Source: Escherichia phage vB_EcoM-CHD16UKE1. Taken from it: a DNA stretch of 64,000 nt. The position numbers and the translations under genes are program-made. The notes under the pieces are model-generated. The model worked only from the letters and a program-made list of their open reading frames with translations. It made no database searches and had not been told where the DNA came from. The DNA lies in the sequence record MZ234030.1; one strand, given 5' to 3'. Numbering within the stretch: position 1 is the stretch's first letter; every line of letters starts with the position of its first letter. This document shows positions 2,433 to 63,335 of this stretch, one piece after another.

Positions 2433-3320
2433 ATGTCAGTAGTAATTAATAATGTCAATGCAGTAATTAAATCTTTAGTTAATAAAAAATTAAATGAATG
2501 GACTGTACTTCGTCGTGGAGAGCCAGATAAATTTTTTCATAGATTTAACCCAACTTTGGATTTGAATGTTATTGACAGAGATGTTCATGCTGAAATTTTA
2601 GATAAATTTAAAGTTGATATTGGGTTTGGGTTAGATAAACATTTGCAACGAACAAACGGATCTGGAATGGGTTTATCTAATCGCATCATGAAAGCCCTTA
2701 ATAAAATTGGAGCGTTGTCTCGTATTAATGCGAGTGAAATCCTTCGCAATTATAATAAAGGATATGACCTTTATGGTCGACTAATGCCGAAATTATCATT
2801 TGACCAAATGATTGCGGATTTGTGGGAAAATCAACGACGATTATTAGCATTAGGCGCTCGATTAGCTAAAGGTCTAGATAAACAAATGATTTTTAAGACC
2901 AATAATACAGAAGACCTTAAATGCTTTAAATTTAGTACTCGTGGAGATGATTATTACATCAGAGCTCGCTCTACAGATTATGTTAATATGGGGCATCATC
3001 TCTGTTTAGCTTTTGAAGTTTTAAAAGAAGCCGGAACATTAGAATATGTGTCTGGTGCTAAATGTCCGATTGGTTCAAATTGCATTTTAATTTATCGCCC
3101 AGATGAATCCAGTTCAACTAAATTACCTACAAAACCTGTACCAGTTCGCAGTAATGAAAAACATTCTGAACAAATTGCTTATTTTAATAAGCAGATTGAA
3201 GAGCTAAATATTTCTATTCAGCAATATGATGATGAAATTTTCAGACTATCTGGATTGAGTAGTAAAGCTAAATCTGAGCGTGAAAAATTAATTAAAATCG
3301 TTGATTTACTTAAATCTTAA
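2433..3320 (+). CDS. coiled-coil paralogue family member 1 (295 aa from ATG 2433)
   Basis: ORF track 2412..3320; ATG at 2433 preceded by GAGG; shared W..F..LF.KQ motif and C-terminal coiled coil with next three ORFs. Confidence 0.5.
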   Translation: MSVVINNVNAVIKSLVNKKLNEWTVLRRGEPDKFFHRFNPTLDLNVIDRDVHAEILDKFKVDIGFGLDKHLQRTNGSGMGLSNRIMKALNKIGALSRINASEILRNYNKGYDLYGRLMPKLSFDQMIADLWENQRRLLALGARLAKGLDKQMIFKTNNTEDLKCFKFSTRGDDYYIRARSTDYVNMGHHLCLAFEVLKEAGTLEYVSGAKCPIGSNCILIYRPDESSSTKLPTKPVPVRSNEKHSEQIAYFNKQIEELNISIQQYDDEIFRLSGLSSKAKSEREKLIKIVDLLKS

Positions 3321-17015: not shown

Positions 17016-18031
17016 AAATTTTAAATTTAGGTGATTGGCATTTAGGCGTTAAAGCCGATGATGAGTGGGTTCAATCCATTCAGTTGGATGGAATTAAACA
17101 AGCAATAGAATATTCTAAGAAAAATGGAATTACTACATGGATTCAATACGGCGATATTTTTGATGTGCGAAAAGCAATCACGCATAAAACTATGGAGTTC
17201 GCTCGTGAAATAGTTCAAATGCTTGATGATGCTGGTATTACCCTACATACTGTTGTAGGAAACCATGATATGCACTTTAAAAATACTTTAACTCCAAATG
17301 CCTCTACTGAGCTTTTGGCTAAATATCATAATGTTAAAGTATATGATAAGCCTACTACAGTAGATTTTGACGGATGTTTGATTGATTTAATTCCTTGGAT
17401 GTGTGAAGAAAATACTGGTGAAATTCTTGAACACATCAAAACTTCATCTGCTTCTTTTTGTGTTGGTCACTGGGAGCTGAATGGATTTTATTTTTATAAA
17501 GGAATGAAATCTCACGGTCTTGAACCTGATTTCCTTAAGACTTATAAAGAAGTGTGGTCTGGTCACTTCCATACTATTTCTGAGGCTGCTAACGTCAGAT
17601 ATATTGGGACACCATGGACACTAACAGCAGGTGACGAGAATGACCCTCGTGGGTTCTGGATGTTTGATACAGAAACAGAACGAATGGAATTTATTCCAAA
17701 TAATACTACCTGGCATCGTAGAATTCATTATCCATTTAAAGGAAAAATTGACTATAAAGATTTTACAAATCTATCAGTACGTGTTATAGTAACTGAAGTA
17801 GACAAAAATCTGACGAAGTTCGAATCTGAACTAGAGAAAGTTGTGCATTCATTACGAGTTGTGTCAAAGATTGATAACTCTGTCGAGTCAGATGACAGTG
17901 AAGAAGTTGAAGTTCAATCGCTTCAGACATTGATGGAAGAATACATTAATGCAATTCCAGACATCACCGATTCTGACCGTGAAGCACTTATTCAATATGC
18001 AAATCAGCTATATGTAGAGGCAACACAATGA
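17012..18031 (+). CDS. 47: recombination nuclease subunit gp47 (Mre11-like), 339 aa
   Basis: ORF track; phosphoesterase motifs (GDWH, GNHD); length matches T4 gp47. Confidence 0.85.
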   Translation: MKILNLGDWHLGVKADDEWVQSIQLDGIKQAIEYSKKNGITTWIQYGDIFDVRKAITHKTMEFAREIVQMLDDAGITLHTVVGNHDMHFKNTLTPNASTELLAKYHNVKVYDKPTTVDFDGCLIDLIPWMCEENTGEILEHIKTSSASFCVGHWELNGFYFYKGMKSHGLEPDFLKTYKEVWSGHFHTISEAANVRYIGTPWTLTAGDENDPRGFWMFDTETERMEFIPNNTTWHRRIHYPFKGKIDYKDFTNLSVRVIVTEVDKNLTKFESELEKVVHSLRVVSKIDNSVESDDSEEVEVQSLQTLMEEYINAIPDITDSDREALIQYANQLYVEATQ

Positions 18032-34954: not shown

Positions 34955-35983
34955 ATGTCATCAATACCTTGGATTGATAATGAGTTTGCGTATCGTGCAT
35001 TAGCTCATTTACCTAAATTCACACAAGTAAATAATAGTTCAACTTTTAAATTGCGGTTTAGATGCCCTGTTTGTGGAGATTCAAAAACCGACCAGAATAA
35101 AGCTCGTGGATGGTATTATGGTGATAATAATGAAGGAAATATTCATTGTTATAACTGTAACTATCATGCACCAATCGGAATATATCTAAAGGAGTTTGAA
35201 CCTGATTTATATCGTGAGTATATCTTTGAAATAAGAAAAGAAAAAGGTAAAAGTCGTCCAGTAGAAAAACCTAAAGAACTTCCTAAACAACCTGAGAAGA
35301 AAATAATTAAATCTCTTCCGTCATGCGTTAGATTAGATAAACTGGTGGAAGACCATCCAATTATAAAATACGTAAAAGCTCGTTGTATTCCAAAGGATAA
35401 ATGGAAATATCTTTGGTTTACAACTGAATGGCCTAAATTAGTTAATAGCATAGCACCGGGAACATACAAAAAGGAAATTTCTGAGCCTCGTCTTGTTATT
35501 CCAATTTATAATGCTAATGGAAAAGCTGAGTCTTTTCAAGGACGTGCATTAAAGAAAGATGCTCCTCAAAAATATATCACCATTAAAGCTTATCCTGAGG
35601 CAACAAAAATATATGGAGTCGAACGAGTTAAAGATGGCGATGTATATGTTCTAGAAGGACCTATAGATTCACTTTTTATTGAAAATGGTATAGCTATTAC
35701 GGGTGGTCAATTAGACCTAGAAGTTGTTCCATTTAAAGATAGACGAGTGTGGGTTTTAGATAATGAACCTCGTCACCCTGACACTATCAAGCGAATGACT
35801 AAATTAGTTGATGCAGGAGAAAGGGTTATGTTTTGGGATAAATCTCCCTGGAAATCAAAAGATGTTAATGATATGATTAGAAAGGAAGGTGCAACCCCTG
35901 AACAAATTATGGAATATATGAAAAATAATATTGCCCAGGGGTTGATGGCTAAAATGCGGTTATCTAAATATGCCAAGATTTAA
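34955..35983 (+). CDS. 61: DNA primase gp61 (342 aa)
   Basis: ORF track; N-terminal zinc ribbon CPVCGDS..CYNC; length matches T4 gp61. Confidence 0.85.
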   Translation: MSSIPWIDNEFAYRALAHLPKFTQVNNSSTFKLRFRCPVCGDSKTDQNKARGWYYGDNNEGNIHCYNCNYHAPIGIYLKEFEPDLYREYIFEIRKEKGKSRPVEKPKELPKQPEKKIIKSLPSCVRLDKLVEDHPIIKYVKARCIPKDKWKYLWFTTEWPKLVNSIAPGTYKKEISEPRLVIPIYNANGKAESFQGRALKKDAPQKYITIKAYPEATKIYGVERVKDGDVYVLEGPIDSLFIENGIAITGGQLDLEVVPFKDRRVWVLDNEPRHPDTIKRMTKLVDAGERVMFWDKSPWKSKDVNDMIRKEGATPEQIMEYMKNNIAQGLMAKMRLSKYAKI

Positions 35984-36180
35984 ATTAACCCAACTAAAGC
36001 AAATGCTAGATCTACGAATGTATCAAGAGTAACTACTGGAATATTAATACCATGTGCAATTGCAATGGGTGATAAAATAAAGTTCCAGAGTAAAATTCCT
36101 ACCATAGCAGAAATAGTAAAAGCTATACGTTTTTTATTACCTTTTATGGCATCAACAAGTGCCATTAATTTTTGTGCCAT
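35980..36180 (-). CDS. small membrane protein (66 aa) on opposite strand
   Basis: ORF track; strong SD AAGGAGG before ATG; hydrophobic; fills otherwise non-coding 300-bp gap. Confidence 0.45.
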   Translation of the reverse strand: MAQKLMALVDAIKGNKKRIAFTISAMVGILLWNFILSPIAIAHGINIPVVTLDTFVDLAFALVGLI

Positions 36181-36199
36181 GTGTCCTCCTTTAAATTAA

Positions 36200-36207
36200 T
36201 ATTTATC
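36200..36207 (-). promoter_or_regulatory. late-promoter-like box (GATAAATA; consensus TATAAATA) upstream of minus-strand ORF
   Basis: reverse complement of aatatttatc. Confidence 0.3.
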
Positions 36208-36224
36208 ACAAATTTCATAAATTT

Positions 36225-36254
36225 GTTTACTTTCTCAGCTTGTTATGGTATTAT
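36225..36254 (+). promoter_or_regulatory. T4-type early promoter (GTTTAC / TATTAT)
   Basis: gtttactttctcagcttgttatggtattat. Confidence 0.55.
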
Positions 36255-36279: not shown

Positions 36280-37619
<1,340 letters not shown>

Positions 37620-48871: not shown

Positions 48872-49243
48872 ATGTTTAAAATCGGTAAGAAATATCGCAT
48901 TCGCGAAGGTGAAGAAAAGAAATATCTATTTTCTGCTATTTATAGGAATGGTTCTATTAATGCTGTAATATCTACAAGCGAATTTATCGTTGAAGATATG
49001 AAAGGTAATAATGTTACAATGATTAGTACAGCATCTGGAAATGACGGAAAAATTCTTCACAGTTTTCAGAGTAATGTTCTAATTTATGATGAAGAATTTG
49101 ACTTCTTCGAAGAAGTTCCCGAAGGTTTTGCTTTTGAATGCACTATCACTATGAAATCTGGTGACCCTCTTTCTTTTACAGTTAAAGATGAAGGAAGTCG
49201 CTTGAGAATTATTAGTCTTCTTCAAGCCATTAAATTTAAGTGA
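48872..49243 (+). CDS. hypothetical protein (123 aa)
   Basis: ORF track. Confidence 0.4.
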   Translation: MFKIGKKYRIREGEEKKYLFSAIYRNGSINAVISTSEFIVEDMKGNNVTMISTASGNDGKILHSFQSNVLIYDEEFDFFEEVPEGFAFECTITMKSGDPLSFTVKDEGSRLRIISLLQAIKFK

Positions 49244-62678: not shown

Positions 62679-63335
62679 TTATTTAGCCCTTCCTAATATT
62701 CTGGCCGCCTGAGCACATATTGATTCAAGGCGGTCATTACTTATATGATCATTTCTATACCAGTACATGGTTATCGTTCCAGCATAGATATTATCCAAAT
62801 TAAAATATGGACAACTGTACATGTAGTTTATTTCGGGAGTAGGCTTTTTAGTTGGTAAAAAAGCAAATTTTGAGTCGGAATAATAATGACGTCCATTTAA
62901 ATGAACTGTATATTCATCCATAGTTTTATCAACAGGATATCCTCCAAGTGATTTTTCACTTATTGTTGAAGGTAATTTTCCTTCATATGCTATAATATCA
63001 ACAAAATAGTTTAAGTTTTTAGGGCGGAAAGAATACACCGCACTAAAGTCTGCCTCAGATGATATATGAACTATCTGGAGTTGTTCCAGGGCGACAGATT
63101 CAAAGCGTGCATTTCTTTCCTTTTCAATAATTTCACTGTATGTTTCATACTTTGATTGCTTATAGTACTCAAAGAAACTATCTCCCCTATACCAAACAAT
63201 CGCCATCATAAATAAAAGAATTACGACAGCTACCCGGGAAGCAAGAACTTTCCCGGTAGCGTTATCTTTGAACAAGCGATCTAGAACACCAAATAGAATA
63301 TCAGAGGGCGAAAATGATATTCTAGGTGCTGCCAT
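62679..63335 (-). CDS. t: holin T (218 aa)
   Basis: ORF track; single TM near N-terminus, large periplasmic domain; length matches T4 T. Confidence 0.85.
   Translation of the reverse strand: MAAPRISFSPSDILFGVLDRLFKDNATGKVLASRVAVVILLFMMAIVWYRGDSFFEYYKQSKYETYSEIIEKERNARFESVALEQLQIVHISSEADFSAVYSFRPKNLNYFVDIIAYEGKLPSTISEKSLGGYPVDKTMDEYTVHLNGRHYYSDSKFAFLPTKKPTPEINYMYSCPYFNLDNIYAGTITMYWYRNDHISNDRLESICAQAARILGRAK

Follow-up and report, generated by a model that had tools for sequence, protein, structure and literature searches.

dam.1, a conserved opposite-strand gene of T4-like phages, encodes a small predicted membrane protein and carries a late-type promoter box

The DNA analysed here is a 64,000-nucleotide (nt) stretch of Escherichia phage vB_EcoM-CHD16UKE1 (MZ234030.1), hereafter the window, and our subject is dam.1, a gene that lies alone on the minus strand among genes of the plus strand. 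The plus-strand genes run in the order 41, dmd, 61.4, sp, 61.2, 61.1, 61, a 186-amino acid (aa) open reading frame (ORF), dam and 56. Since these genes are in T4 order, the plus strand of the window is the direction of T4 early and middle transcription. Between gene 61, which encodes DNA primase, and the next plus-strand ORF, starting at 36280, there is a gap of 296 base pairs (bp), and this gap holds the 66-aa dam.1 ORF (MAQKLMALVDAIKGNKKRIAFTISAMVGILLWNFILSPIAIAHGINIPVVTLDTFVDLAFALVGLI). The two genes converge on the four nucleotides TTAA, which serve as overlapping stop codons. Upstream of the dam.1 ATG stand an AAGGAGG Shine-Dalgarno sequence, spaced from the start codon by ACAC, and then a late-promoter-type box, GATAAATA (Table 1). 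A sequence-only reading of this stretch had pointed to the ORF in a gap of about 300 bp, the 4-nt convergent stop overlap, the hydrophobic core of the product, the Shine-Dalgarno sequence 4 nt before the ATG and a late-type box about 20 nt upstream; all of these were found where it placed them. Escherichia phage vB_EcoM-PM123 matches the region at 100% identity, and approximately 500 Tequatrovirus records are closely similar.

Table 1. Features of the dam.1 locus, in window coordinates
Feature	Position	Strand	Remarks
Gene 61 (DNA primase, 342 aa)	34955..35983	+	constant convergent neighbour of dam.1
TTAA, overlapping stop codons of gene 61 (+) and dam.1 (-)	35980..35983		
dam.1 coding sequence (CDS)	35980..36180	-	66 aa; span includes the stop codon; ATG at 36180-36178
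dam.1 codons 43-66	35983..36054	-	loop H-G-x-x-x-P, then acidic hydrophobic C-terminal helix (D53, D57)
Predicted transmembrane helix, dam.1 codons 19-42	36055..36126	-	conserved Trp32-Asn33, invariant Pro38
Weak terminator-like hairpin and T-run	36146..36175	+	inside dam.1 codons 2-12; from a consensus scan; annotated as a terminator in MZ726795
Shine-Dalgarno sequence AAGGAGG	36185-36191	-	4 nt (ACAC), then ATG
Predicted late transcription start	36193..36195	-	leader ~13-15 nt, expected from a box occupying -13 to -6 (PMC1524935)
Late-promoter-type box GATAAATA	36200..36207	-	3' end 19 nt before the dam.1 ATG
T4 early-type promoter (GTTTAC...TGGTATTAT) of the divergent 186-aa ORF	36226..36254	+	not part of dam.1

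The case for a gene is comparative. By tblastn the dam.1 ORF is intact at a coverage of at least 80% in 691 phage records, of which approximately 500 are Tequatrovirus at 86-100% identity and the remainder have ~50% identity or less. Among 14 distinct Tequatrovirus alleles the mean ratio of nonsynonymous to synonymous substitution rates (dN/dS) is 0.21, and the variable sites are distributed 10/3/15 over codon positions 1/2/3; judged by this pattern, dam.1 is under purifying selection. No plus-strand gene overlaps the body of the ORF, and the conservation is therefore not borrowed from another reading frame. The family comprises 115 clusters at 90% identity, nearly all of them from T4-like phages, and its conservation at the protein level reaches down to ~25% identity. 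The length of the ORF by itself is only mildly unusual, as an ATG-initiated ORF of at least 66 aa arose in 50 of 5000 shuffles of the gap (1%), and it is the comparative data that decide. They show dam.1 to be, on the evidence of related genomes, a genuine protein-coding gene of T4-like phages, and in doing so they supply the survey of T4-like genomes, here covering seven genera, that the sequence-only reading had called for.

The position of the gene is conserved as well. It stands by itself on the opposite strand, convergent with gene 61, in Tequatrovirus, Mosigvirus, Gaprivervirus, Kanagawavirus, Dhakavirus, Marfavirus and the Klebsiella T4-like phages, and the same 4-nt stop overlap is found in Mosigvirus, Gaprivervirus, Dhakavirus and Kanagawavirus KLB31. 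The Mosigvirus homologue is annotated as similar to RB69ORF029w. Whereas the 3' partner is constantly gene 61, the promoter-side flank is variable (dam, 186-aa ORF, gene 56, HNH, mazG-like) and differs even inside Tequatrovirus, where it may be dam, as in T4, the 186-aa ORF, as in the window, gene 56 or an HNH endonuclease. Tequatroviruses have a swap site here: dam, dam with the 186-aa ORF, an HNH endonuclease, or nothing may stand between gene 56 and dam.1, and the sequence upstream of Tequatrovirus dam.1 exists in two unrelated versions. Gaprivervirus phage VR25 encodes two tandem diverged paralogues (locus L010, 2495-2692 and 2701-2901), one of the T4/RB69 type and the other of the Kanagawavirus/Dhakavirus type, and only the first has its own NATAAATA box.

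The late-type box is retained where the surrounding sequence is not. We compared ten orthologous upstream contexts from seven genera, which are mostly unalignable to one another. All ten have NATAAATA 12-22 nt upstream of the ATG, and all ten keep a GGAGG-type Shine-Dalgarno sequence. The box is GATAAATA in the window (19 nt to the ATG) and in T4 (21 nt), AATAAATA in the second Tequatrovirus flank type (22 nt), Mosigvirus (21 nt) and Dhakavirus (21 nt), CATAAATA in Gaprivervirus (16 nt), Kanagawavirus KLB31 (15 nt) and Klebsiella phage Lion (12 nt), and the canonical TATAAATA in two contexts, Kanagawavirus Q7622 (20 nt) and Marfavirus (19 nt). Klebsiella phage Lion has a second box, GATAAATA, 33 nt from the ATG. 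The box thus begins with A or C in three contexts each and with T or G in two each. The window box matches the gp55 consensus TATAAATA at seven of eight positions, the deviation being the G at -13; no position of the late consensus is less conserved than T(-13), of 50 listed T4 late sites 32 are perfect and 18 deviate, and late transcripts are possible in either polarity (PMC2988020, PMC1524935).

The core of this box is otherwise scarce. In dam.1 orthologue loci the background of ATAAATA is 2.9e-4 per position, and in the 64-kb window the motif is six-fold depleted, with 7 copies against 41 +/- 6.5 expected from dinucleotide-preserving shuffles, a pattern to be expected if selection removes stray late-promoter boxes. 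Known late genes follow three of the other six copies, namely gene 49 (AATAAATA, 30 nt), soc (TATAAATA, 29 nt) and the holin gene t (AATAAATA, 18 nt to the ATG). Holin gene t (window ~63354, minus strand) is the closest in layout: like dam.1 it has a variant late box (AATAAATA in t, GATAAATA in dam.1) that ends 18-19 nt short of the ATG, and a Shine-Dalgarno sequence of the AAGGAGG type (AAGGAGGG). The retention of the NATAAATA box with a strong Shine-Dalgarno sequence, the depletion of the motif elsewhere and the t-like architecture together indicate that dam.1 is most probably expressed late. Two further boxes lie elsewhere in the window. A perfect TATAAATA at 48937-48944 on the minus strand has no ORF start within 80 nt downstream, and a CATAAATA at 63208-63215 on the plus strand is followed solely by a 64-aa ORF with a TTG start 53 nt downstream; these could be orphan late promoters, for example of an antisense or long-leader transcript.

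The product is very hydrophobic, and across the family it has 57-82 aa, a basic N-terminus and one clear transmembrane helix. In the window protein an amphipathic helix of net charge +4, with KGNKKR at its end, takes up residues 1-18, and the hydrophobic core, residues 19-41, has a Kyte-Doolittle mean of 2.0. The last 24 residues, also hydrophobic, have a net charge of -2 and include no basic residue, and residues 47-66 constitute a second hydrophobic stretch. Trypsin would yield just one convenient peptide from the protein, LMALVNAIK. In an AlphaFold2 (AF2) model (predicted local distance difference test score, pLDDT, of 75) a helix spans residues 16-42, followed by a loop at 43-51, which contains H-G-I-N-I-P, and a helix at 52-63. 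Since residues 47-66 reach a Kyte-Doolittle mean of 1.86, the protein may instead adopt a two-helix hairpin topology. The family motif is [WY]-N-x4-P-x-A-x3-G-x3-P-x4-[DE]. In our alignments (A1-A3) W/Y32, N33, P38, G44 and P48 are invariant or nearly so across the family, A40 is nearly invariant among the T4-like members, and the acidic residue at position 53 is mostly kept. Membrane helices with a conserved Asn halfway along are a classic case of helix-helix association, driven by that residue, and the conserved Asn within the dam.1 membrane helix therefore suggests oligomerisation or binding of a partner. A dual-start motif of the kind found in lambda S was considered and rejected, as M6 is without a Shine-Dalgarno sequence and is not conserved beyond Tequatrovirus.

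The family reaches beyond the T4-like phages. The window protein matches PHROG 2024, a family of unknown function, with E=4.3e-31 (residues 3-66 against profile positions 2-65 of 65), and all 24 diverse members that we compared match the same profile. A profile search run exhaustively over 1.84 billion representatives returned 17 clusters, all of at most 82 aa and with the same motif; because only these small proteins were found, there is no link to a characterised cellular family. Searches of the window protein against Pfam, NCBIfam and PADLOC gave no match, the family profile gave only insignificant matches to PDB sequences, and Foldseek against BFVD returned only family members, one of which carries the UniProt label "Holin", a label that is unsupported. 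Members from outside the T4-like phages occur in metagenomic siphovirus-like contigs, after a tail-tip gene and an endonuclease VII gene, and the siphovirus-like elements have no primase gene next to the homologue. At two loci (L023 and L024) the member begins a tightly packed co-directional block that continues with genes for proteins of 180 aa and 109 aa and ends with a T4-type lysozyme (Phage_lysozyme). The 180-aa and 196-aa neighbours of distant homologues are soluble and homologous to each other (E=3e-8), and the neighbours of ~106-109 aa have no detectable mutual relation. The family also occurs in prophages of enterobacteria. Where an E. coli prophage interrupts yegD, the member comes last in it, beside the attachment site or the disrupted yegD, and a lysozyme gene lies nearby on the other strand. 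In Raoultella and in metagenomic elements it is immediately upstream of a gene with a RelA_SpoT domain, and a 97-aa version is found in this position. The RelA_SpoT family includes defence toxins of the toxSAS and CapRel types, and the neighbour is possibly a toxSAS or CapRel-like defence gene.

The dam.1 ORF is already known: an identical GenBank record annotates it as hypothetical. It is a CDS in MH355584 and MZ726795, it is named dam.1 (T4Tp032) in T4T (HM137666) and RB69ORF029w in RB69, and it corresponds to VOG1982 among the pVOGs. In many records its label is "hypothetical protein" or "putative membrane protein"; the genomes that call it "hypothetical" number in the hundreds. The T4T dam.1, RB69ORF029w, PHROG 2024 and VOG1982 entries represent the same gene as that of the window, structurally without difference, and carry no function, promoter assignment or expression data. 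The useful additions made here are the late-promoter architecture, the gap in the T4 reference, the family motif and the reach into non-T4 phages. T4 is the reference model of lytic phage biology, yet its reference annotation lacks this conserved gene. In NC_000866 and AF158101 the 309-bp gap between dam and 61 (NC_000866 17626-17934) is without annotation, although the T4 allele is intact at NC_000866 17738-17938 on the plus strand, with its box at 17709-17716, and its product is 92% identical to the window protein. The orthologue is likewise intact but unannotated in NC_048694 (Marfavirus F48), MW822011, OM386655 and NC_014595. A study of the T4 transcriptome and proteome quantified reads solely over the features annotated in NC_000866, which exclude dam.1, and so the gene went unmeasured there. 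In the searchable literature we found no paper pairing "dam.1" with phage T4 and none mentioning RB69ORF029w, and a literature search for a T4 ribosome-profiling study found none.

We consider it likely, from the architecture and conservation of the locus, that dam.1 is a conserved late gene of T4-like phages, encoding an inner-membrane protein of PHROG 2024 and served by its own late-type promoter. In the late period dam.1 would be transcribed on its own, from the NATAAATA box that lies 12-22 nt before the ATG, by RNA polymerase bearing the phage sigma factor gp55 together with gp33 and the gp45 clamp. The product would be an mRNA with a short leader and a strong Shine-Dalgarno sequence, a layout like that of holin gene t. 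By the positive-inside rule, and with charges of +4 at the N-terminus and -2 at the C-terminus, the protein would insert into the inner membrane with the N-terminus in and the C-terminus out. The buried Trp-Asn pair would then make helix-helix contacts, either with itself or with a partner membrane protein. Three observations weigh against a late gene at this position. The G at -13 is outside the commonly listed variants of the box, the gene was not called by the T4 reference annotators, and a scan of RB69 with a hidden Markov model of the late promoter has no entry at RB69ORF029w (Nolan 2006, PMC1524935, Additional File 5).

The sequence-only reading had proposed a late-expressed membrane peptide, for example a lysis, superinfection or toxin-like factor. 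The gene, the membrane protein and, most probably, the late timing stood up, the last through the box and Shine-Dalgarno sequence in ten contexts, the depletion of the motif and the t-like layout. Two defining features of holins were looked for and are lacking. As to function, a late accessory role in the envelope or in lysis, such as that of a holin-like protein or of a holin partner that modulates lysis timing, is possible, and we put it forward tentatively as the foremost guess. Narrower versions are doubtful: that dam.1 is an unrecognised late envelope or lysis component, such as a partner that tunes the triggering of holin T or lysis inhibition through its buried Trp-Asn, or that it is a holin-like remnant shared with siphovirus-like prophages. 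dam.1 is a small protein with at least one transmembrane domain, as holins are. There are weak hints from profile searches, with matches to the holin families phrog_3427 in one member (E=5e-4) and phrog_11161 in another (E=8e-4), and to Pfam GTA_holin_3TM (PF11351) in three members (E=0.03-0.1, 13.6-15.3 bits against a cut-off of 24.8). Two of the GTA_holin_3TM matches, those with listed coordinates, fall on the same region of the profile, the last transmembrane segment and the tail. The window protein itself matches no Pfam or PHROG holin family. Further weak hints of a lysis role are the L023 and L024 block of distant homologues, with its closing lysozyme gene, and the t-like layout of the promoter.

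Comparison with known proteins gives a mixed picture. T is an N-in protein with one transmembrane helix, as is predicted for dam.1. However, T has 218 aa and a large periplasmic domain, whereas dam.1 has ~24 residues past the transmembrane helix, and we found no sequence similarity between the two. The small phage holins of GTA_holin_3TM, PHROG 3427 and PHROG 11161 resemble dam.1 in size class, membrane location and presumed late expression, but dam.1 has one clear transmembrane segment against three in GTA_holin_3TM, and no charged C-terminal tail. Imm, RI, Ac and the spanin PseT.3 are short phage inner-membrane proteins that act on the envelope, and dam.1 is likewise predicted to be located in the membrane; searches with Pfam, NCBIfam and PADLOC revealed no homology of dam.1 to small T4 membrane proteins.

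Several observations count against a role in lysis. All of the holin profile matches are below curated thresholds, no curated holin family is significantly matched, and spurious matches are common with hydrophobic proteins. Its acidic, hydrophobic C-terminus differs from the highly charged hydrophilic tail of a holin. In T4-like phages the gene is not linked to an endolysin gene. T4 already has a lysis system that is complete and defined by genetics, with the holin T, the antiholins RI and RIII, and spanins, and we know of no r or lysis mutant that maps at dam.1. The positions at a prophage end and before a RelA_SpoT-domain gene are typical of accessory or defence genes. Together with the duplication in Gaprivervirus, these contexts fit an accessory role in exclusion or defence about as well as one in lysis.

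The alternative to which these contexts point is that the protein serves superinfection exclusion, immunity or counter-defence from within the membrane, altering the envelope of the infected or lysogenic cell so that other phages or a defence system of the host are blocked. It would account for the homologue that is last before the attachment site in the E. coli yegD prophages, for the homologue directly upstream of the RelA_SpoT-domain gene, for the two diverged tandem paralogues of Gaprivervirus and for the accessory-gene hot spot on the promoter side of dam.1. We nevertheless regard it as rather unlikely. Exclusion in T4 is known from imm and sp, both of them early genes on the other strand, and the predicted late timing of dam.1 is a poor fit for such a role. 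There is no PADLOC match, and the strong conservation and synteny across genera are unlike those of accessory genes with fast turnover.

The convergent layout raises another alternative, that the promoter serves chiefly to send an antisense RNA into gene 61, causing late shut-off of the primase mRNA, with the peptide secondary. The overlapping stops are conserved, and because our scan found no minus-strand terminator-like site between 35980 and 32952, the dam.1 transcript probably does continue antisense into and through gene 61. As an account of what the promoter is for, this is improbable. Conservation down to ~25% identity with an invariant motif, a dN/dS of 0.21 and a strong Shine-Dalgarno sequence argue for selection on the protein, and the siphovirus-like homologues lack a primase neighbour. 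An antisense effect would in any case be compatible with dam.1 as a late membrane protein gene.

Two alternatives that concern the peptide itself fare worse. dam.1 might be a membrane-depolarising peptide similar to type I toxins, silenced early by the complementary 3' untranslated region (3'UTR) of the gene 61 mRNA. Its small size and hydrophobicity would fit, one of 24 family members matches Pfam Ldr_toxin (E=0.1), and if the hairpin within codons 2-12 terminates gene 61 transcripts, their 3'UTR would be antisense to nearly the whole ORF. That single Ldr match is insignificant, however, and a significant match to an Ldr- or Hok-like family and a dedicated antisense RNA are both lacking; the only candidate for an antisense RNA is the putative gene 61 3'UTR, the folding of the hairpin is not significantly stable (z = -1.5), and a lytic phage offers no call for toxin-antitoxin logic. 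We regard this explanation as very improbable. It is also highly unlikely that the N-terminal 42 residues are a cleavable signal peptide, with P-x-A-x-A before H43, which would free a periplasmic peptide of 24 residues. The basic N-terminus would be the n-region and the hydrophobic stretch the h-region, and the invariant P38, the A40 that is nearly so in T4-like members and the small residue at position 42 throughout the family resemble a -3/-1 site. Yet the h-region is long (~20-24 residues), and it would contain W32 and N33, the most conserved residues, which is unusual for a mere export signal. For RB69ORF029w, moreover, SignalP was negative and a transmembrane segment at 21-41 was predicted instead (Nolan 2006, PMC1524935, Additional File 2).

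A chance ORF in an AT-rich spacer whose only content is the terminator of gene 61 and the next gene's promoter is scarcely credible and effectively refuted by the comparative data: 1% of shuffled gaps do yield an ORF of this length, and the gene is unannotated in the T4 reference and several other records, but against this stand the 691 intact copies under purifying selection, the protein-level conservation over seven genera and into unrelated phage types, and the conserved Shine-Dalgarno sequence and promoter box.

The comparative evidence provides a set of coordinates for the gene in T4, a prediction of late gp55-dependent expression and a family motif. If dam.1 does act in lysis timing, exclusion or defence, it would be a new component of a system that is supposed to be fully catalogued; otherwise it is one more small conserved membrane protein. 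Were it a late envelope or lysis component, it would be one that sixty years of T4 genetics and recent omics have overlooked, because dam.1 is absent from the reference annotation.

The 186-aa ORF that diverges from dam.1 (36280-36840, plus strand) lies directly upstream of dam, and its stop codon overlaps the dam start (TAATG). It resembles the PD-(D/E)XK core of type II restriction endonucleases, with coinciding matches to PADLOC REase_II (E=9e-5) and Pfam DpnII (E=0.0045) in one region, and with a motif D72...E85-x-K87; the structure model is too poor to confirm such a core. DpnII cuts GATC, which is the Dam site, and for this reason the 186-aa ORF and dam may form a phage-borne pair resembling a restriction-modification system. 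The ORF is nearly invariant in 154 phage records, T2 included. T4 is without most of it and without its early promoter, through a 548-bp deletion flanked by the 8-bp direct repeat ATCACAAA (window 36205-36212 and 36753-36760, plus strand; T4 locus L003, ~3200-3217). The kept copy of ATCACAAA overlaps the first three bases of the dam.1 GATAAATA box, and the T4 deletion therefore stops exactly at the dam.1 promoter. Approximately 20 C-terminal codons of the 186-aa ORF persist in T4, frameshifted.

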